This document shows positions 4,736 to 26,236 of a DNA stretch of 64,000 bases, one piece after another. The translations under genes were made by a program, and so were the position numbers. Every line of letters starts with the position of its first letter. Within the stretch, counting starts at the first letter, position 1. This DNA is from Escherichia phage p000v: the sequence record NC_055781.1; one strand, written 5' to 3'. Under the pieces are notes generated by a model. It was not told the origin of the DNA. It worked only from the letters and a program-made list of their open reading frames with translations, and did not search any database.

Positions 4736-6431
<1,696 letters not shown>

Positions 6432-6774: not shown

Positions 6775-9030
6775 ATGCAAGTAACTAAGAGCAGTGGTGT
6801 ATCCCAAAATTTTGATGCACAGAAAATTATTCAAGTCTTAACTTGGCAGTGTGAAGGAACACAAATCGACCCATATGAATTGTACGAAGAAATTAAGACC
6901 CATCTTGTTGACGGGATGAGCACCAAAGATATTCAGAAGATTTGTATTAAAGTTGCAGCTAACTCGATTTCTGTCGAAGAACCTGATTATCAATATGTTG
7001 CCGCTAAAGGATTAATGTTTGCGCTTCGTAAAGATGTATATGGACAGTTTGAACCTCCTGCTTTTATCGACCATATCTCGTATTGTGTTAATGAAGGCAA
7101 ATACGATCCTGAGTTGTTGTCTAGATATTCTGCAGAAGAAATCATTTATCTTGATTCTCGGATTAAACATGAGCGAGATTTTGATCTGACTTATGCTGGT
7201 GCTATGCAGCTTAAAGAAAAATACCTGGTTAAAGATAAAACAACTGGGAAGATTTATGAAACTCCACAGTTTGCTATCATGGCTATCGGTATGGCCTTAC
7301 ATCAAGACGAAACTCATGACCGTTTGAAACATATTATTCGTTTTTATGATGCCGTTTCTACTCATCAAGTTTCATTGCCTACTCCAATTATGGCAGGTGC
7401 TCGTACTCCAACTCGCCAGTTCTCTAGTTGTGTAGTTATTGAAGCCGGTGATTCGTTAAAATCTATTAACAAAACTTCAGCATCAATTATCGAATATATT
7501 TCTAAACGAGCTGGCATTGGTATTAACGTTGGTATGCTTCGTGCAGAAGGTTCTAAGATCGGTATGGGTGAAGTTAGACATACGGGTGTTATTCCATTCT
7601 GGAAACATTTCCAAACTGCAGTAAAATCTTGTTCTCAAGGTGGTATTCGTGGTGGTGCTGCTACAGCGTATTATCCGATGTGGCACTTAGAAGTAGAGAA
7701 CCTATTAGTTCTGAAAAATAACAAAGGCGTGGATGAAAACCGTATTCGACATATGGACTACGGAATTCAGATTAATGACCTCATGATGGAACGCCTTGGT
7801 AAAAATGATTATATTACTTTATTTAGCCCTCACGAAATGTCAGGCGAACTATACTACTCGTTCTTTGAAGATCAAGATAAATTCCGTGAGCTTTATGAGA
7901 AAGCTGAAAAAGACCCAACAATCAGAAAGAAAAGAATCAAAGCACTAGAACTCTTTGAATTGTTCATGACTGAACGCTCTGGTACTGCTCGAATTTATCC
8001 ACAATTCGTTGATAACACGAACAACTACACTCCATTTATTCGTGAAAAAGCTCCAATTCGACAGAGTAACTTATGTTGTGAAATCGCTATTCCAACTAAT
8101 GATGTGAATGGTCCTGATGCTGAAATTGGTTTATGTACGTTATCTGCTTTTGTATTAGATAAATTTGATTGGCAAGACCAAGATAAAATTAATGAACTGG
8201 CCGAAGTACAAGTACGTGCACTTGATAACTTGTTAGACTATCAAGATTATCCGGTTCCAGAAGCTTTAAAAGCTAAAAAGCGTCGAAACCTCGGTGTTGG
8301 TGTGACGAACTATGCCGCATGGTTAGCTTCTAACTTTGCTTCATATGAAGACGCTAACGATTTGACTCATGAATTGTTTGAGAGATTGCAATATGGCCTT
8401 ATCAAAGCTTCAATCAAACTCGCCAAAGAAAAAGGACCTTGTGAGTATTATTCAGACACTAAATGGTCTAGAGGCGAATTACCTATCGACTGGTACAATA
8501 AAAAGATTGACCAAATCGCAGCCCCGAACTACGTCTGTGACTGGGAAGAACTTCGAGCTGAACTCAAAGAACATGGAATTCGTAACAGCACACTTAGTGC
8601 TCTCATGCCATGCGAATCAAGCAGTCAAGTCTCAAATAGCACAAACGGTATAGAGCCACCTCGTGGACCTGTAAGTATTAAAGAATCTAAAGAAGGCAAC
8701 TTCCGACAGGTTGTTCCTAATATTGAACACAACATGGGTCTTTATGACTATGCGTGGAAACTCGCTAAGAAAGGTAATAAGCCTTATCTGACACAAGTTG
8801 TTATCATGTTAAAATGGGTATGCCAATCTGCTTCTGCTAATACTTACTATGACCCTGCAGTATTTGAGAAAGGTAAAGTGCCAATGTCGGTAATGCTTGA
8901 CGATCTGCTTTACTTCTGGTACTTTGGCGGAAAAAACCTCTACTATCATAACACTCGTGATGGGTCAGGTACAGATGACTACGAATTAGAAACACCTAAA
9001 GCTGAAGATTGTTCTGCTTGTAAGCTTTAA
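6775..9030 (+). CDS. nrdA: Aerobic ribonucleoside-diphosphate reductase large subunit
   Basis: 751 aa; class Ia RNR alpha sequence with conserved catalytic-site cysteines (NLCCEIA) and C-terminal CxxC tail; T4 position. Confidence 0.95.
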   Translation: MQVTKSSGVSQNFDAQKIIQVLTWQCEGTQIDPYELYEEIKTHLVDGMSTKDIQKICIKVAANSISVEEPDYQYVAAKGLMFALRKDVYGQFEPPAFIDHISYCVNEGKYDPELLSRYSAEEIIYLDSRIKHERDFDLTYAGAMQLKEKYLVKDKTTGKIYETPQFAIMAIGMALHQDETHDRLKHIIRFYDAVSTHQVSLPTPIMAGARTPTRQFSSCVVIEAGDSLKSINKTSASIIEYISKRAGIGINVGMLRAEGSKIGMGEVRHTGVIPFWKHFQTAVKSCSQGGIRGGAATAYYPMWHLEVENLLVLKNNKGVDENRIRHMDYGIQINDLMMERLGKNDYITLFSPHEMSGELYYSFFEDQDKFRELYEKAEKDPTIRKKRIKALELFELFMTERSGTARIYPQFVDNTNNYTPFIREKAPIRQSNLCCEIAIPTNDVNGPDAEIGLCTLSAFVLDKFDWQDQDKINELAEVQVRALDNLLDYQDYPVPEALKAKKRRNLGVGVTNYAAWLASNFASYEDANDLTHELFERLQYGLIKASIKLAKEKGPCEYYSDTKWSRGELPIDWYNKKIDQIAAPNYVCDWEELRAELKEHGIRNSTLSALMPCESSSQVSNSTNGIEPPRGPVSIKESKEGNFRQVVPNIEHNMGLYDYAWKLAKKGNKPYLTQVVIMLKWVCQSASANTYYDPAVFEKGKVPMSVMLDDLLYFWYFGGKNLYYHNTRDGSGTDDYELETPKAEDCSACKL

Positions 9031-9071: not shown

Positions 9072-10262
9072 GTGAGAAATATAATGAGTACAGTTTTTAA
9101 TACACAACAAGTCGATGTTTTGAACGAACCGATGTTCTTTGGTTCTGGTCTTGGTCTTGCACGTTATGATATTCAGCGTCATAAAGTTTTCGAAGAACTT
9201 ATTGAAAAGCAATTGTCGTTTTTCTGGCGCCCAGAAGAGGTAAACTTGATGTTGGACTCTGCGCAGTTCAATAAGCTTCCTCAGTTCCAACAGGACATCT
9301 TTACAAACAATCTTAAGTATCAATCATTATTAGATTCTATCCAAGGCAGGGCCCCATCTGCGGTACTTATGGCACTGATTTCTGACCCTTCATTAGATAC
9401 ATGGGTTGCAACATGGACATTCAGTGAAACTATTCACTCTCGTTCATATACTCATATTATGCGAAATCTTTATACCGATCCATCCAAGGTATTTGATGAG
9501 ATTGTATTAGACGAAGCAATCATGAAACGAGCTGAATCAATAGGTAAATATTACGATGATGTTCTGGTTAAAACTCGTTATTGGGAAAACGCTAAAGCTG
9601 ATATCGAATACCAAAAAGAAATTAATGCAGACGAAGACGTTATTGAAGATGCTATTGGGCATGAGACATATTGGAAGCGTGAGCTAATGAAATCTCTTTA
9701 TCTTTGCCTTCATGTAATTAACGCCTTGGAAGCTATTCGTTTTTATGTATCTTTCGCATGTACCTTTAACTTCCATAAAAACATGGAAATTATGGAAGGT
9801 AATGCAAAGATTATGAAGTTCATTGCCCGTGACGAACAACTCCACCTCAAGGGTACTCAATATATTATTCGTCAACTTCAATCTGGTACTGACGGTGATG
9901 AGTGGGTTCAAATTGCTAAAGAATGTGAACAAGAAGCAGTTGACATTTTTATGGAAGTAAATAGTCAAGAGAAGGAATGGGCTGCACACCTCTTTAAAGA
10001 TGGTACATGTCCAGGTATCAATACGCAGAGTATGTGTGCTTTTGTTGATTACTTGACTGTGTCTCGTATGAAACAGTGTGGTTTGCCATGCCCAATCACT
10101 GATGCTCCGTCCAAGCATCCGTATCCTTGGATTCGTGAATATCTGAACTCTGATTTAGTTCAAGCAGCTCCTCAGGAAGTTGAAATCAGTTCTTATCTTG
10201 TCGCACAAATTGATAATGATGTAGACCAAAATGTAATCAATTCATACAAAAAATATTTCTAA
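9072..10262 (+). CDS. nrdB: Aerobic ribonucleoside-diphosphate reductase small subunit (uninterrupted, no intron)
   Basis: 396 aa; di-iron/tyrosyl radical R2 family sequence; continuous reading frame. Confidence 0.95.
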   Translation: MRNIMSTVFNTQQVDVLNEPMFFGSGLGLARYDIQRHKVFEELIEKQLSFFWRPEEVNLMLDSAQFNKLPQFQQDIFTNNLKYQSLLDSIQGRAPSAVLMALISDPSLDTWVATWTFSETIHSRSYTHIMRNLYTDPSKVFDEIVLDEAIMKRAESIGKYYDDVLVKTRYWENAKADIEYQKEINADEDVIEDAIGHETYWKRELMKSLYLCLHVINALEAIRFYVSFACTFNFHKNMEIMEGNAKIMKFIARDEQLHLKGTQYIIRQLQSGTDGDEWVQIAKECEQEAVDIFMEVNSQEKEWAAHLFKDGTCPGINTQSMCAFVDYLTVSRMKQCGLPCPITDAPSKHPYPWIREYLNSDLVQAAPQEVEISSYLVAQIDNDVDQNVINSYKKYF

Positions 10263-20270: not shown

Positions 20271-20489
20271 ATGTTTAAGAAACTGATGCAGAAATTGTTT
20301 GGTACGGAAATGATCGAAGTTACTTATCGTGTAACAGACGTTTTTCCATATTATACAGAAAACCGTTTAGAACCATACGTTACGTCAATTAAAATGCCTA
20401 AAAATGACGGAAATTTATCTATCGAAGACCGTATACCTGGATACGGTCATTGGGCTGATGTTGAAATTATAAGTGTTAAAGATGTCTGA
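20271..20489 (+). CDS. Hypothetical small protein
   Basis: 72-aa ORF. Confidence 0.4.
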   Translation: MFKKLMQKLFGTEMIEVTYRVTDVFPYYTENRLEPYVTSIKMPKNDGNLSIEDRIPGYGHWADVEIISVKDV

Positions 20490-20940
20490 ATTAGAAATAA
20501 GAAGTAATTTCAAGTGGCCGTCATGTGCATTAAGTAACTTTGCTCAATGGCCTTTTGTTATGGATGGTATTCAATTCGGAGGTCTTGAAGGATTTCTCCA
20601 AGGGTGTAAGGTGAAAAATGTTGAACAACAAAGACGTATATTTGGGTTGTCTGGATTGGCTGCACAGCAAGCTGGAAGGTCTTATGCAAGAGCTCAGGAC
20701 CGTGGGACTCTCTTCTGGTTAGGAGTTCCGTTTTCAAGATACTCTGAAGCGTGGAAAGAATTATACACAAATGCATATTTTGAAGCCGCGATCCAAAATA
20801 AGGGGTTTCGTGATGCCTTACAAGCCTCTAAAGGAAAAATTTTGAAGCACAGCATGGCTAGCCACCTAACAAAAGATGATACAATACTAACCGAAACTGA
20901 ATTTGTTGATGTGTTAAACCTATTAAGAGACTCTTTATGA
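20482..20940 (+). CDS. NADAR / YbiA-like (DUF1768) domain protein, candidate ADP-ribose or N-glycoside processing enzyme
   Basis: 152 aa from ATG 20482 (overlaps upstream stop ATGTCTGA); segment LSNFAQWPFVMDGIQFGGLEGFLQGCKV...RRIFGLSGLAAQQAGRS resembles the SNFA-WP--DG...E--FQ--K...AA--GR core of E. coli YbiA as I recall it. Confidence 0.5.
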   Translation: MSELEIRSNFKWPSCALSNFAQWPFVMDGIQFGGLEGFLQGCKVKNVEQQRRIFGLSGLAAQQAGRSYARAQDRGTLFWLGVPFSRYSEAWKELYTNAYFEAAIQNKGFRDALQASKGKILKHSMASHLTKDDTILTETEFVDVLNLLRDSL

Positions 20941-21737
20941 AGCCTACTATTTTGACTGATATTGATGGTGTATGTTTAAGCTGGCAATCTGGACTTCCTT
21001 ATTTTGCCCAAAAATATAATCTTCCATTAGAACATATTTTAAAAATGATTCAGGACGAAAAATTTATTTCTCCTGGTAAACTGTTCAATACCGATGATAA
21101 CCTTGGTAAACAATTAATAGAAAAATATAATCGCTCTGATTTTATTCGTTACTTAGCGCCTTATTCGGATGCTCTTCGAGTTATCAATAAACTAAAAGAA
21201 GACTATAATTTTGTAGCCGTGACGGCGCTAGGCGATTCAATTGATGCTCGATTGAATAGACAATTTAATTTGAATGCTTTGTTCCCAGGCGCTTTCTCTG
21301 AAGTAATGATGTGTGGTCATGATTCTTCAAAAGAACAATTATTCGAACTAGCCAAAACAAAGTATAACGTGATTTGTTACGTTGACGATTTAGCTCATCA
21401 CTGTGACCATGCGGCAGAAATTCTTAATGTACCGATTTATTGGTTGGCTCGTGGTGAACGTGATGATATTCCTCGCACTGCACAACGTGTACACACGTGG
21501 GATGATATTGAATCTCGATTGGTTCCACCTGAGCATAATTCAGATTCAGATCGTGAAGACCTTTTAAAACGATTGGCGGATTTGCTTAAAGAATCTGGTG
21601 CAACAAGTCCAGGTGCATGGCCTAATCAAATTGGCGCTCCGTCGAATCCGTATACTTGGCGAACTCCAGGACCAACCGATATGCAGCCATGGTGGACGAT
21701 TCAAAACTTTCCTTTAGATTCGTCCAAATGGACTTAG
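20937..21737 (+). CDS. HAD-superfamily phosphatase-like protein (possible nucleotidase) with Pro/Trp-rich C-terminal tail
   Basis: 266 aa; HAD motif I ILTDIDGV near N-terminus, later YVDD motif; C-terminal 60 residues low-complexity (GATSPGAWPNQIGAPSNPYTWRTPGP). Confidence 0.5.
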   Translation: MKPTILTDIDGVCLSWQSGLPYFAQKYNLPLEHILKMIQDEKFISPGKLFNTDDNLGKQLIEKYNRSDFIRYLAPYSDALRVINKLKEDYNFVAVTALGDSIDARLNRQFNLNALFPGAFSEVMMCGHDSSKEQLFELAKTKYNVICYVDDLAHHCDHAAEILNVPIYWLARGERDDIPRTAQRVHTWDDIESRLVPPEHNSDSDREDLLKRLADLLKESGATSPGAWPNQIGAPSNPYTWRTPGPTDMQPWWTIQNFPLDSSKWT

Positions 21738-21761: not shown

Positions 21762-22031
21762 ATGTTTGTAGTTCATGATATTACAGATGGCAAAAACACA
21801 ACGCGTGACTACGGTCACGTTAATATGTTCTTTCGAGATTGGCCATTGTTTCGTTCAGTAAAAGACGCAGAAATATTTAAAGAGTGTGTTGAACAAGGGT
21901 TCATCTACATTTCAGAATATTATGTTGAAGGACTCGGTAAATGGATTACCACTTATCAGAAAACGCTGAAATCGCTTCTAGATGAAGTGGCTTATAATAG
22001 AACCGTAACCAAAATCGAGGATATCAAATGA
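21762..22031 (+). CDS. Hypothetical protein (30.1 position)
   Basis: 89-aa ORF immediately upstream of ligase with ATGA overlap. Confidence 0.4.
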   Translation: MFVVHDITDGKNTTRDYGHVNMFFRDWPLFRSVKDAEIFKECVEQGFIYISEYYVEGLGKWITTYQKTLKSLLDEVAYNRTVTKIEDIK

Positions 22032-23521
22032 TTTTAGATATTTTAAACCAAATAGCTGCGATCGGTTCTACTAAAACAAAACAGGAAATCCTTAAGAAAA
22101 ATAAGGACAACAAATTACTTGAACGTGTATATCGTTTAACGTATGCACGTGGCATTCAGTATTATATTAAGAAATGGCCAGGACCAGGTGAAAGGTCTCA
22201 AACGTATGGTCTTCTTGAATTAGATGACATGTTGGATTTTATTGAGTTCACATTGGCCACTCGTAAACTCACTGGTAATGCAGCAATTAAAGAGCTCATG
22301 GGTTATATCGCTGACGGTAAACCTGATGATGTTGAAGTACTACGCCGTGTAATGATGCGCGACCTTGAAGTAGGTGCTTCAGTGTCTATCGCGAATAAGG
22401 TATGGCCTGGACTTATTCAATTGCAACCGCAGATGTTAGCATCTGCATATGACGAGAAATTGATTACTAAAAATATTAAATGGCCTGCATTTGCTCAATT
22501 AAAAGCAGATGGTGCTCGTTGTTTCGCTGAAGTTCGTGATGACGGTGTTCAATTCTTTTCTCGTGCTGGTAATGAATACCATGGTCTTACCCTATTAGCA
22601 GATGAACTAATGGAAATGACTAAAGAAGCCCGTGAAAGACACCCTAATGGGGTTTTAATCGACGGTGAATTGGTTTATCATTCATTTGATATTAAAAAGG
22701 CTGTGAGCTCAGGAAATGACCTGTCGTTCTTATTTGGCGATAATGAAGAATCCGAAGAAGTACAAGTTGCAGACCGTAGCACTTCAAATGGTTTAGCAAA
22801 TAAATCTCTTCAAGGGACTATTTCTCCTAAAGAAGCGGAAGGTATGGTTCTTCAAGCCTGGGACTATGTTCCTTTAGATGAAGTCTATTCTGACGGCAAA
22901 ATTAAAGGTCAGAAATACGATGTTCGTTTTGCTGCTCTTGAAAATATGGCTGAAGGCTTTAAACGAATTGAACCTATCGAAAACCAGATAGTTCGTAATC
23001 TTGACGAAGCTAAAGTGGTTTATAAAAAATATGTTGACCAAGGTCTTGAAGGTATTATCCTTAAAAACCGTGATTCATATTGGGAAAACAAACGCTCTAA
23101 GAACCTAATTAAATTTAAAGAAGTTATTGATATCTCTTTAGAAGTTGTAGGATACTACGAACACTCTAAAGACCCTAACAAATTAGGTGGTGTCGAACTC
23201 GTATCACGTTGTCGTCGTATTACAACCGATTGTGGTTCAGGGTTTAAAGATACAACTCATAAAACAGTTGACGGTGTAAAGGTTCTTATTCCTTTAGATG
23301 AGCGTCATGATTTAGACCGTGAACGATTAATGGCTGAAGCTCGTGAAGGTAAATTGATTGGACGTATTGCTGATTGCGAATGTAATGGTTGGGTTCATTC
23401 TAAAGGCCGTGAAGGTACTGTAGGTATTTTCCTTCCAATTATTAAAGGGTTCCGTTTTGATAAAACAGAAGCGGATTCATTTGAAGACGTATTTGGACCG
23501 TGGTCCCAGACAGGTTTATAA
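22028..23521 (+). CDS. 30: ATP-dependent DNA ligase gp30
   Basis: 497 aa; MILDILNQIAAIGSTKTKQEILKKNKDN...; adenylylation motif LKADGARCF; matches T4 DNA ligase. Confidence 0.95.
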   Translation: MILDILNQIAAIGSTKTKQEILKKNKDNKLLERVYRLTYARGIQYYIKKWPGPGERSQTYGLLELDDMLDFIEFTLATRKLTGNAAIKELMGYIADGKPDDVEVLRRVMMRDLEVGASVSIANKVWPGLIQLQPQMLASAYDEKLITKNIKWPAFAQLKADGARCFAEVRDDGVQFFSRAGNEYHGLTLLADELMEMTKEARERHPNGVLIDGELVYHSFDIKKAVSSGNDLSFLFGDNEESEEVQVADRSTSNGLANKSLQGTISPKEAEGMVLQAWDYVPLDEVYSDGKIKGQKYDVRFAALENMAEGFKRIEPIENQIVRNLDEAKVVYKKYVDQGLEGIILKNRDSYWENKRSKNLIKFKEVIDISLEVVGYYEHSKDPNKLGGVELVSRCRRITTDCGSGFKDTTHKTVDGVKVLIPLDERHDLDRERLMAEAREGKLIGRIADCECNGWVHSKGREGTVGIFLPIIKGFRFDKTEADSFEDVFGPWSQTGL

Positions 23522-23709
23522 TGAAAGCTTATTTAGAAACAGTTATTGTAGCTAAGAAGGATGGTGGAGATGTTTCCACCTCTTGCTCTCAGATTATATT
23601 AGATTTTCCTAATAACGATTCCTATCATATTTTTATGGATAATTTTGATAAGTACGAAAAAGGCCCTAATTTTGAAGTTTATCGTACTTTGCTTCCGATT
23701 GTGGATTAA
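23521..23709 (+). CDS. Hypothetical small protein
   Basis: 62 aa from ATG 23521 overlapping ligase stop (TAATG). Confidence 0.35.
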   Translation: MKAYLETVIVAKKDGGDVSTSCSQIILDFPNNDSYHIFMDNFDKYEKGPNFEVYRTLLPIVD

Positions 23710-23764: not shown

Positions 23765-25852
23765 ATGTCTGAACAATTAAATGAAGTGTTTGAATCTGAA
23801 GGCAGTCTTCCTGTCGTCAATTTGAACCCTAAAGCTAAAGTTCCACAAGTTTGGAAAATTGGTGATATCGATACAAACATCGTAGTCCGTTTATTCTCTT
23901 ACCTTTCCGAAGGCGATGCTGTAAAACAAGTTAAACTTGGTGACAAATACGCTCATGTTGTTATTATGAGTCTATCTGAAAAGGGTAATCTCGCTGAATT
24001 GAAAAATGGCCTTGGTCCTGCTCCTATTGATGCAATCAACACCATTTTCAATACAGTGTATGAACAGGTTAAAGCTCTTCGTATGGATGCAGTTTTGTTC
24101 CGATTCCCTACCAAGAAATTGAAAGGACGTGGACAACAACTTCAAACTCTTCTTGCTCGTTTAGTTTCTACTAAAACTGGTGGTCGTTTTAAAGTATTGT
24201 CTGCAATGTATCAATTCACAGGTAAACACACCTATGTGATGATGGTTCGTAAAAATGCCAACATTGAAGATATTAAAGGCATCCCTAACATTAACACAGA
24301 GTTGTACACGAAAGTAGATTCTGATGTTGGCGAAGTTTATGTGAGTAAAAAGACTGGCGAAAAAGTCACCAAAGAAACGGCTATAGCTGGTTCTATTGCT
24401 GCTGTAGAAGAAAAACGTAAAGATAAGCCTGTTATTGCTCGTACTAAAATTTCTCGTCGTGCTATTGCAGCAAGTCAATCTTTAGAAGCTGACCGCCAAG
24501 AAGGTGAGTTATTCCAGAAATACGAAAATTCTGCTAAAGAAGTTAGTGGTCCAGCTACAGCTGAATTACTTCCTGAAGCATATGAAATCGTACTAGCCCA
24601 AGCATCGTCCACAGCAAAAGGCACTTTAGTTGCTGATATCGAAAATAAGATTTATAATCGTATTGATGAATCCTTTAGATTTGCTGATGAAGTTTCTTAT
24701 GGTAGTGTTATTAAGCCGACTTTAGAAAAGTTTGCTAAGAAAATTAAAACTGAAAAAACAACATCTGTTAAAGCATTAGCCGCTTTTGTTGAAGCTGCAA
24801 ACGAAATTGCAGACTCTATTAGAGACGAATGGTTTGAAGATTTTAGACGTGATAATTTCCAACTGCCTGACGATGTTTTAGCTGAAGTATCTGAAAGAAC
24901 TTGGAAACAACGTAAATCAGCGTTCTTGTCTAATGTGATGTATACTTATGCACGAGAATCGGCTAGAGGCACCTTTAATATAACAATGAATCGGGACCCT
25001 AAACAATACTCTGTTGCTGAAAAACGAGCTATTCGTGAATATGCCTCTTCTGCGTATACCGATATCAATAATATGTTGTTAGGTCGTTATAAACCAGATT
25101 TTTACGATGTTGCAGATGAAGATGAAGTTAAACGCGCTATTGATGGTCTTGATTCGGCGTTTTTAAATGGAGACCGTTTACCTGAAGGACTAACGTTGTA
25201 TAGAGCCCAGTCTATCAGAATGCCTATTTATGAAGCAATGGTTAAAAATAAGGTATTCTACTTCAGAAACTATGTTTCCACTTCACTAGCTCCTATTATT
25301 TTCGGCGGGTTTAAAGAGAACGTTGCCCTTGGACTTGCTCCTGAAGAAGTTCGCAAAGAGCTTAACATTGACAATAATGACGAAGGTGTTACTATTTCTC
25401 CTAGTCAAGTAAGAACAGCTATGCATGCGCCAGAACAAATCCGTGTTAACGTTGGATGGGCTATTGATGGCGCCCATAAAGTTAACGTGATTTATCCGGG
25501 ACAGTTGAGTAATCACCCTAATGAGCAAGAAATTATTTTGCCTAGAGGCATTCTCTTGCAGATAAATAAAATTACAGATGCGTCATCTGACACTGGTGCA
25601 GGTTTAGAATCCAACCTTAAATTTATTCAAGCTGAAGTCATGTCCTCAGACCAGTTGGACGAAGCTGTCATTTACGATGGTGATGTTCTCATGGAAACAG
25701 GCGAGGTGGTTGCTATGACGGGTGAAATCGAATCAGATGAGCCGGTATCGTTCTCCTCATTTGTAGAAAAAACTAGTGCTCCTAAAGGATTGAAACTGTT
25801 AGCATCTTTAATGGATTTGGAATCGGTTCCGTTTAAATTTGTTCAAGGATAG
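23765..25852 (+). CDS. alt: Alt ADP-ribosyltransferase (head-packaged, modifies host RNA polymerase alpha)
   Basis: 695 aa; N-terminus MSEQLNEVFESEGSLPVVNL; C-terminal ART core with R-S-E type motifs (YRAQS, FRNYVSTS, QEIILPRG); T4 position downstream of gene 30. Confidence 0.85.
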   Translation: MSEQLNEVFESEGSLPVVNLNPKAKVPQVWKIGDIDTNIVVRLFSYLSEGDAVKQVKLGDKYAHVVIMSLSEKGNLAELKNGLGPAPIDAINTIFNTVYEQVKALRMDAVLFRFPTKKLKGRGQQLQTLLARLVSTKTGGRFKVLSAMYQFTGKHTYVMMVRKNANIEDIKGIPNINTELYTKVDSDVGEVYVSKKTGEKVTKETAIAGSIAAVEEKRKDKPVIARTKISRRAIAASQSLEADRQEGELFQKYENSAKEVSGPATAELLPEAYEIVLAQASSTAKGTLVADIENKIYNRIDESFRFADEVSYGSVIKPTLEKFAKKIKTEKTTSVKALAAFVEAANEIADSIRDEWFEDFRRDNFQLPDDVLAEVSERTWKQRKSAFLSNVMYTYARESARGTFNITMNRDPKQYSVAEKRAIREYASSAYTDINNMLLGRYKPDFYDVADEDEVKRAIDGLDSAFLNGDRLPEGLTLYRAQSIRMPIYEAMVKNKVFYFRNYVSTSLAPIIFGGFKENVALGLAPEEVRKELNIDNNDEGVTISPSQVRTAMHAPEQIRVNVGWAIDGAHKVNVIYPGQLSNHPNEQEIILPRGILLQINKITDASSDTGAGLESNLKFIQAEVMSSDQLDEAVIYDGDVLMETGEVVAMTGEIESDEPVSFSSFVEKTSAPKGLKLLASLMDLESVPFKFVQG

Positions 25853-25881
25853 TTTACAAGCACATGGATGTGTGATACTAT
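25852..25881 (+). promoter_or_regulatory. T4-type early promoter
   Basis: GTTTAC 25852..25857 (overlaps alt stop), 17-bp spacer, TGTGA-TACTAT 25876..25881, leader CAACAACATGAGGAAAA. Confidence 0.6.
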
Positions 25882-25910
25882 TATCCTATCAACAACATGA
25901 GGAAAACGTT

Positions 25911-26204
25911 ATGAAATCTATGCTTCGCTTTAATGGTCAAGAACTAGTAGTTGAAGATGCTATCCCAGCGGATGATGTTTTTAACGAAGCTGTGATTGAC
26001 GAATTGAATCGAGTATTCCCAGGTGCATTCCATATTGCTATGGAACCTCTTAAAAACTTTCGTGACCCTGAGCACACTGATCAAATTTTTATCGGTGTAC
26101 TGACAGGTCATTTAGAAACAGAGGTACCAATGGTCGTATTAGTTAAATACTCTAAAGATGATACTCCGTTCCGAGCACCAGCATTCCTTTCATTCCGTAA
26201 ATAA
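25911..26204 (+). CDS. Hypothetical early protein (alt-adjacent)
   Basis: 97 aa from ATG 25911; track ORF 25839..26204 reads through the promoter. Confidence 0.45.
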   Translation: MKSMLRFNGQELVVEDAIPADDVFNEAVIDELNRVFPGAFHIAMEPLKNFRDPEHTDQIFIGVLTGHLETEVPMVVLVKYSKDDTPFRAPAFLSFRK

Positions 26205-26213
26205 ACCCCTAAA

Positions 26214-26236
26214 GGGAGACGTTGTCTCCCTTTTTT
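26214..26236. terminator. Terminator hairpin between convergent early ORF and gene 54
   Basis: GGGAGAC-GTTG-TCTCCC followed by TTTTTT on + strand; preceded by A-run so potentially bidirectional. Confidence 0.6.

Follow-up and report, generated by a model that had tools for sequence, protein, structure and literature searches.

The window analysed here is a 64,000-nucleotide (nt) stretch of the genome of Escherichia phage p000v (NC_055781.1). The gene at 20482..20940 on its + strand very probably encodes AdfN, an enzyme that erases the guanine-linked ADP-ribose written into phage DNA by DarT1, the toxin of the host system DarTG1. To judge from its sequence, it is the orthologue of T4 gene 30.3, which has been published as adfN (anti-DarT factor NADAR). 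Its product (152 amino acids (aa) plus stop) is classed as a phage-type NADAR DNA ADP-ribosylglycohydrolase from its match to PF08010, its identity to the T4 protein and its fold. The function of this family is already known: experiments published in 2023-2025 demonstrated it for a protein almost identical to this one. A sequence-only reading of this stretch had recognised a YbiA/NADAR-like protein from a motif and is supported; its motif-based inference was correct and the finding is not new.

The adfN reading frame starts at ATG 20482 and ends with TGA at 20938-20940. The mechanical list of open reading frames (ORFs) sets the start at GTG 20473, which would give a product of 155 aa. However, 20482 was taken as the start because it corresponds to the ATG used by T4 gp30.3 (MSELEIR...), and the limits 20482-20940 with a 152-aa product, as put forward in the sequence-only reading, are right. 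The protein matches the Pfam family PF08010 ('Bacteriophage protein GP30.3', Phage_30_3) with 231 bits (E = 4.5e-69, model positions 1-138 of 138; gathering cut-off 36 bits) and also matches phrog_652, a family of unknown function.

T4 gp30.3 (NP_049816) is identical to the p000v protein at 145 of 152 positions (95%), over the full length and without gaps. The two have the same length, the same overlaps with their neighbours and the same genomic position, and they share E36, K43, H123 and the C-terminal helix. They differ by seven substitutions, conservative to moderate in kind (R11K, P89E, V120I, I125M, G128H, A139T and I142V). The genes differ at 47 of 459 nt (10%), mostly synonymously. Of the codon changes, 33 are synonymous and 7 non-synonymous, as purifying selection on a protein would lead one to expect; together with the PF08010 score, this sets the gene far outside what chance would give. 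The seven substitutions all lie outside the 17 positions invariant across the 69 sequences of the family alignment (A1; the homologue set numbers 85).

The T4 annotation has a further gene, 30.3' (75 aa), which lies out of frame inside 30.3. Its frame is not preserved in p000v, where the same ATG gives 34 codons followed by TAG (20618-20722, + strand, frame +2). This lack of conservation between close relatives argues against 30.3' as a real gene.

The motif given in the sequence-only reading (SNFA-WP...DG...E..FQ..K...AA..GR) is present in AdfN, with SNFA at residues 18-21, WP at 23-24, DG at 28-29, E36, FLQ at 38-40, K43 and AAQQAGR at 60-66. Both HMMER and hhalign align this block to FSNFAAWPIKVDG...SEHYFQAQKF...AARMGR of YbiA. 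A search of PDB with the single AdfN sequence (phmmer) found nothing, so that a family profile is required. The top PDB match of that profile was YbiA (2b3w, E = 0.009), and hhalign aligned it to E. coli YbiA with 94% probability (E = 1.4e-7) over residues 15-122. The NADAR family PF08719 was matched by 27 of the 69 aligned members when these were scanned singly (best E = 1.5e-7). Among the 85 homologues, two have been named 'YbiA (DUF1768)' by JGI and one has precomputed matches to both PF08010 and PF08719.

The AlphaFold2 model of AdfN obtained from the family alignment has a mean predicted local distance difference test score (pLDDT) of 94.3 and a predicted template modelling score (pTM) of 0.89. 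It shows the helical core with small sheets at its sides by which the YbiA fold is recognised. When the model was compared with PDB by Foldseek, YbiA ranked first, a Phytophthora NADAR with ADP-ribose (8bau) second and the Geobacter lovleyi NADAR (8bat) third. All three are NADARs, which bears out the fold suggested from the motif; structure prediction, one of the checks proposed with that suggestion, places AdfN closest to YbiA and NADAR structures.

Residues important to NADARs are conserved. Glu36 (codon GAA, 20587..20589, + strand) and Lys43 (AAG, 20608..20610, +) are invariant in the 69 sequences and align with YbiA E48 and K55, respectively. In NADARs the former contacts the distal ribose of ADP-ribose and the latter coordinates phosphate. 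E43 and K50 of PnNADAR are the ADP-ribose-binding Glu and Lys (ribose and phosphate contacts), while K95 of the E. coli C7 NADAR, equivalent to K43, is essential (PMC11543638). In T4 AdfN, E36A no longer gives full rescue and K43A is impaired; the peer-reviewed version of the AdfN work describes the loss as partial rather than complete, a softer statement than that of the preprint (PMC11825919).

His123 (CAC, 20848..20850, +) sits in the last strand and marks out the phage-type (gp30.3) NADARs; it is invariant (69/69). At this position the YbiA subfamily has Glu, NADARs associated with DarT1 have Asp and those of phages have His, which is how the three groups are told apart (PMC11543638, PMC11125620). 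The hhalign alignment stops at K122, opposite YbiA V124, and by extension H123 falls opposite YbiA E125. The C-terminal α-helix (residues 138-152, 20893..20937, +) spans residues 138-151 in the model with pLDDT > 90, and there is no frameshift relative to T4. In phage RB69, which is sensitive to DarTG1, a one-base insertion causes a frameshift and loss of this helix, leaving a protein that is weakened or without function, and data for an engineered truncation have also been reported (PMC11825919). Unlike in RB69, the helix is intact in p000v.

Much is known of the T4 protein. Schuller et al. (Mol Cell 2023, PMC11543638) described the reversal by NADARs of guanine ADP-ribosylation by DarT1, as well as phage NADARs with His in the last strand. 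Purified T4 gp30.3 hydrolyses guanine-linked but not thymine-linked ADP-ribose (Toxins 2024, PMC11125620). Using phage crosses, Johannesman et al. (bioRxiv 2024; Nat Commun 2025;16:1598, PMC11825919) traced the ability of T-even phages to resist DarTG1 to gene 30.3, which they renamed adfN. Deletion of adfN made T4 and T2 about four logs more sensitive to DarTG1, and ectopic AdfN rescued RB69. Purified AdfN stripped ADP-ribose from DarT1-modified DNA, and a two-hybrid assay showed no association of AdfN with DarT1 (PMC11825919). A T4 transposon screen gave independent confirmation, since adfN insertions were lost only on the DarTG1 host, and it identified tk.4/AdfM as the anti-DarTG2 counterpart. 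The preprint had suggested that AdfN acts specifically on hydroxymethylated DNA. The peer-reviewed version abandons this idea, as T4-GT7, whose DNA is unmodified, keeps its adfN-dependent protection (PMC11825919). An anti-defence factor against a DarTG-like system was one of two roles offered in the sequence-only reading, and it is the one that the literature gives to the T4 orthologue.

Located among the early genes that separate gene 31 from DNA ligase, adfN would be expressed during infection to give a minimal, core-only enzyme of the NADAR fold. DarT1 of a DarTG1-carrying host would ADP-ribosylate guanines in the phage DNA and so block replication. AdfN would then hydrolyse the guanine-ADP-ribose bond and restore replicable DNA, with the modified DNA as its target and the toxin left unbound. 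ADP-ribose would be held by E36 and K43, the phage-specific His123 probably standing at the place of the catalytic Glu/Asp of other NADARs. For the p000v protein, the analysis shows the orthology, the fold, the conservation of the functional residues and the intactness of the C-terminal helix. Enzymatic activity and phage phenotype have been described for the T4 protein, and the 95%-identical p000v allele would be expected to behave in the same way.

Nothing contradicts this assignment, which has some limits. The p000v protein has no match to PF08719 even at E ≤ 1, and the profile check proposed in the sequence-only reading thus failed in its direct form. PADLOC and NCBIfam models likewise do not match AdfN, and three of the seven substitutions relative to T4 lie near H123 or within the C-terminal helix. 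Furthermore, T4 gp30.3 gives uninfected E. coli no protection from DarT1 (PMC11125620), and rescue of the non-T-even phages T5 and Bas25 by AdfN is weak (PMC11825919). Part of the mechanism may thus depend on a T-even co-factor; the authors of the AdfN work propose that a further T-even factor is required for full activity (PMC11825919). It is clear, however, that the NADAR relationship is real, being visible through relatives, profiles and structure rather than through a direct match to PF08719.

Among characterised NADARs, AdfN is not DarG1, the NADAR antitoxin of DarTG1 (known from G. lovleyi, 8bat, and E. coli C7; BC4488 subfamily). DarG1 has Asp in the last strand, where AdfN has His, and carries an N-terminal extension, whereas p000v AdfN is a bare core starting about 15 residues before SNFA. 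The DarG1 gene adjoins darT1, while the neighbours of adfN are 30.4- and 30.2-like genes without an ADP-ribosyltransferase (ART) domain. In addition, T4 AdfN cannot replace DarG1 in uninfected cells (PMC11125620).

Two other T-even proteins, AdfA (gp61.2) and AdfM (the T4 tk.4 macrodomain), also counter DarT-type DNA ADP-ribosylation. Like AdfN, AdfM is an orphan-antitoxin-like eraser, but it is a macrodomain directed at the thymine-targeting DarTG2. AdfA has no recognisable enzymatic domain, and an evolved AdfA variant associates with DarT1 (PMC11825919). Neither 61.2 nor tk.4/adfM was found in this part of the window. The latter had been expected there; the part of the T4 map represented spans rnh to beyond alt.

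AdfN could instead be a YbiA-type housekeeping N-glycosidase acting on small metabolites, such as reactive riboflavin-pathway intermediates, rather than on DNA. E. coli YbiA carries an N-glycosidase annotation and is among the two closest structural matches of AdfN, and its name has been given to some AdfN relatives by JGI. However, the last-strand Glu that defines the YbiA subfamily is His in AdfN and in all 69 family members, and AdfN is not a member of that subfamily. The proteins share about 20% identity, and the C-terminal WGxG...G.N.LG segment of YbiA (PF08719) lies outside its hhalign alignment with the AdfN family. YbiA also removes cytosine-linked ADP-ribose, whereas a 2026 paper found that the T4 enzyme does not, and YbiA is chromosomal and linked to housekeeping or to the SOS operon (PMC11125620). 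In a published phylogeny, the closest neighbours of the gp30.3 cluster are the NADARs associated with DarT1 and not YbiA (PMC11825919). DNA de-ADP-ribosylation has been demonstrated for the T4 orthologue, with a phenotype specific to DarTG1 (PMC11125620, PMC11825919). A housekeeping role is the least probable of the explanations considered.

The second role offered in the sequence-only reading was that of an eraser tuning the phage's own ADP-ribosylation. AdfN would then reverse marks that Alt (or ModA/ModB) sets on proteins or RNA of the host. Alt (695 aa, 23765-25852; PF03496, E = 6.5e-28) begins 2.8 kb past the end of adfN, close to the distance of about 3 kb given there. DNA ligase (22028-23521), which had been called adjacent, lies two genes downstream. 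The genes adfN and alt are also close in Tevenvirinae-level relatives, and NADARs are enzymes that handle ADP-ribose. On the other hand, Alt modifies arginine in proteins, which counts against such a role. The NADAR substrates described in the literature cited here are all base-linked ADP-ribose on nucleic acids (guanine, and cytosine in some subfamilies), and the T4 enzyme acts on guanine-linked ADP-ribose only (PMC11125620, PMC11543638). The phage can do without adfN on K-12, and only the presence of DarTG1 makes the gene essential (PMC11825919; T4 transposon screen), and Alt goes unmentioned in the AdfN paper (PMC11825919).

Comparison with more distant genomes bears on the same question. 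One Tevenvirinae-level relative (L012, AdfN 57% identical) retains the entire 30.3-30.2-30.1-ligase-alt block. Four other lineages (L003, L007, L014 and L016) carry gp30.3-family genes of 38-44% identity in unrelated large-phage contexts, with no ART domain recorded within 5-6 kb. The linkage of adfN and alt is thus a matter of the usual T-even synteny rather than of two genes conserved as a pair. As no ligase lies within 5-6 kb in these four lineages either, a conserved functional pair of adfN with Alt or with DNA ligase was ruled out. The proposal that AdfN tunes Alt marks had proximity in its favour, and we regard it as highly improbable.

AdfN may also have a wider range than DarT1, neutralising other guanine-targeting DNA or RNA ADP-ribosyltransferases. 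Such a range, which would extend the anti-DarTG1 function and not replace it, is conceivable because the target of AdfN is the modified product rather than the toxin. The T4 enzyme removes the guanine-linked ADP-ribose written by an unrelated transferase, ScARP, as well as that written by DarT1, and a broader action has been raised by the authors of the AdfN work (PMC11825919). However, DarTG1 is the sole natural target system demonstrated so far, and the activity of AdfN in cells is narrowly context-dependent, as the uninfected cells and the T5 and Bas25 experiments indicate (PMC11125620, PMC11825919). This extension is rather unlikely, although it has more in its favour than either of the substitutes for the anti-DarTG1 function.

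The co-factor presumed for AdfN could be the product of the translationally coupled gene 30.2, which might stabilise or localise AdfN or complete its reaction. The 30.2-like ORF (266 aa, 20937..21737, + strand; phrog_420, E = 9.6e-79) has a start that overlaps the adfN stop (ATGA). The N-terminus of its product contains TDIDGV (DxDG), resembling motif I of HAD proteins, and its HAD-type matches are all below threshold (PF13419, E = 0.019; TIGR01428, E = 0.089; a PDB 5'(3')-deoxyribonucleotidase, E = 0.77).

Adjacency of 30.3 and 30.2 is kept in L012 (gp30.2 63% identical) and not in more distant relatives. None of the genes directly downstream of the gp30.3 homologue in L003 (254 aa), L007 (445 aa) and L016 (233 aa) resembles gp30.2; those of L003 and L016 do not resemble each other either, and a scan of those of L003 and L007 gave no Pfam domain. 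A 30.3-30.2 pair conserved past the T-even phages was therefore rejected, since the pair holds only in L012. Retention within T-even synteny and absence from distant lineages fits a T-even-specific factor; plain synteny explains it equally well. The product of 30.2 is a natural and possible candidate, to which the tests made here gave no positive support, and that it is the partner needed by AdfN seems improbable.

Gene order around adfN is as in T4: cd, 31.x, 31, rIII, 30.9 to 30.4, 30.3, 30.2, 30.1 (DUF3045), DNA ligase, alt.1 and alt. Upstream, the 30.4-like ORF (72 aa, 20271..20489, + strand; phrog_2042) overlaps the start of adfN by 8 nt, and the overlaps of 30.4, 30.3 and 30.2 in T4 have the same arrangement. 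Over the 2.4 kb around adfN, many Escherichia Tequatrovirus genomes reach 94-98% identity, with phage FL31 highest at 97.7%. A scan for promoters and terminators around adfN gave counts no higher than in shuffled sequence (27 against 24.7, and 6 against 5.0, respectively), and for this reason no transcription unit is claimed.

Homologues of gp30.3 about 38% identical to AdfN are found in two large phage-like metagenomic sequences, L003 (308 kb) and L007 (82 kb), indicating that the family extends well past classical T4-like genomes. Their neighbours within ±6 kb include NUDIX, Thg1-like, AAA, GGDEF, SprT-like and PRPP-synthetase proteins, several of which are nucleotide- or NAD-related.

Small ORFs lie on both sides of alt: an alt.1-like ORF (23500-23709, +), whose counterpart in L012 has PF24647 (Phage_blade), and an ORF of 121 aa (25839-26204, +). 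In T4 the position of the latter, just after alt, is that of alt.-1/alt.-2, remnants of an old partial duplication of alt. A strong terminator-like hairpin follows it at 26211-26233.

Elsewhere in the window, thymidylate synthase (286 aa) and an nrdB-like ORF (396 aa) are each single and uninterrupted (5571-6431, 6775-9030 and 9072-10262, + strand; compared with T4, L011). ORF sizes leave no space for SegG between 59 and 32, nor for MobE between nrdA and nrdB. Judged by ORF sizes alone, the td and nrdB genes of p000v seem to be free of the group I introns present in T4 (I-TevI, I-TevIII), and the free-standing homing-endonuclease genes segG and mobE seem to be absent.

The practical value of these results is in annotation: both the nearest phage entries in GenBank and the RefSeq entry of T4 call the gene product a 'hypothetical protein', and the gene can be named adfN. 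The work on AdfN assigned a function to one of the roughly 100 unassigned genes of T4. It also provided the first case of a lytic phage with an orphan, antitoxin-like enzyme that undoes the DNA modification made by a defence system. As p000v carries an intact adfN allele, it is predicted to be resistant to DarTG1.
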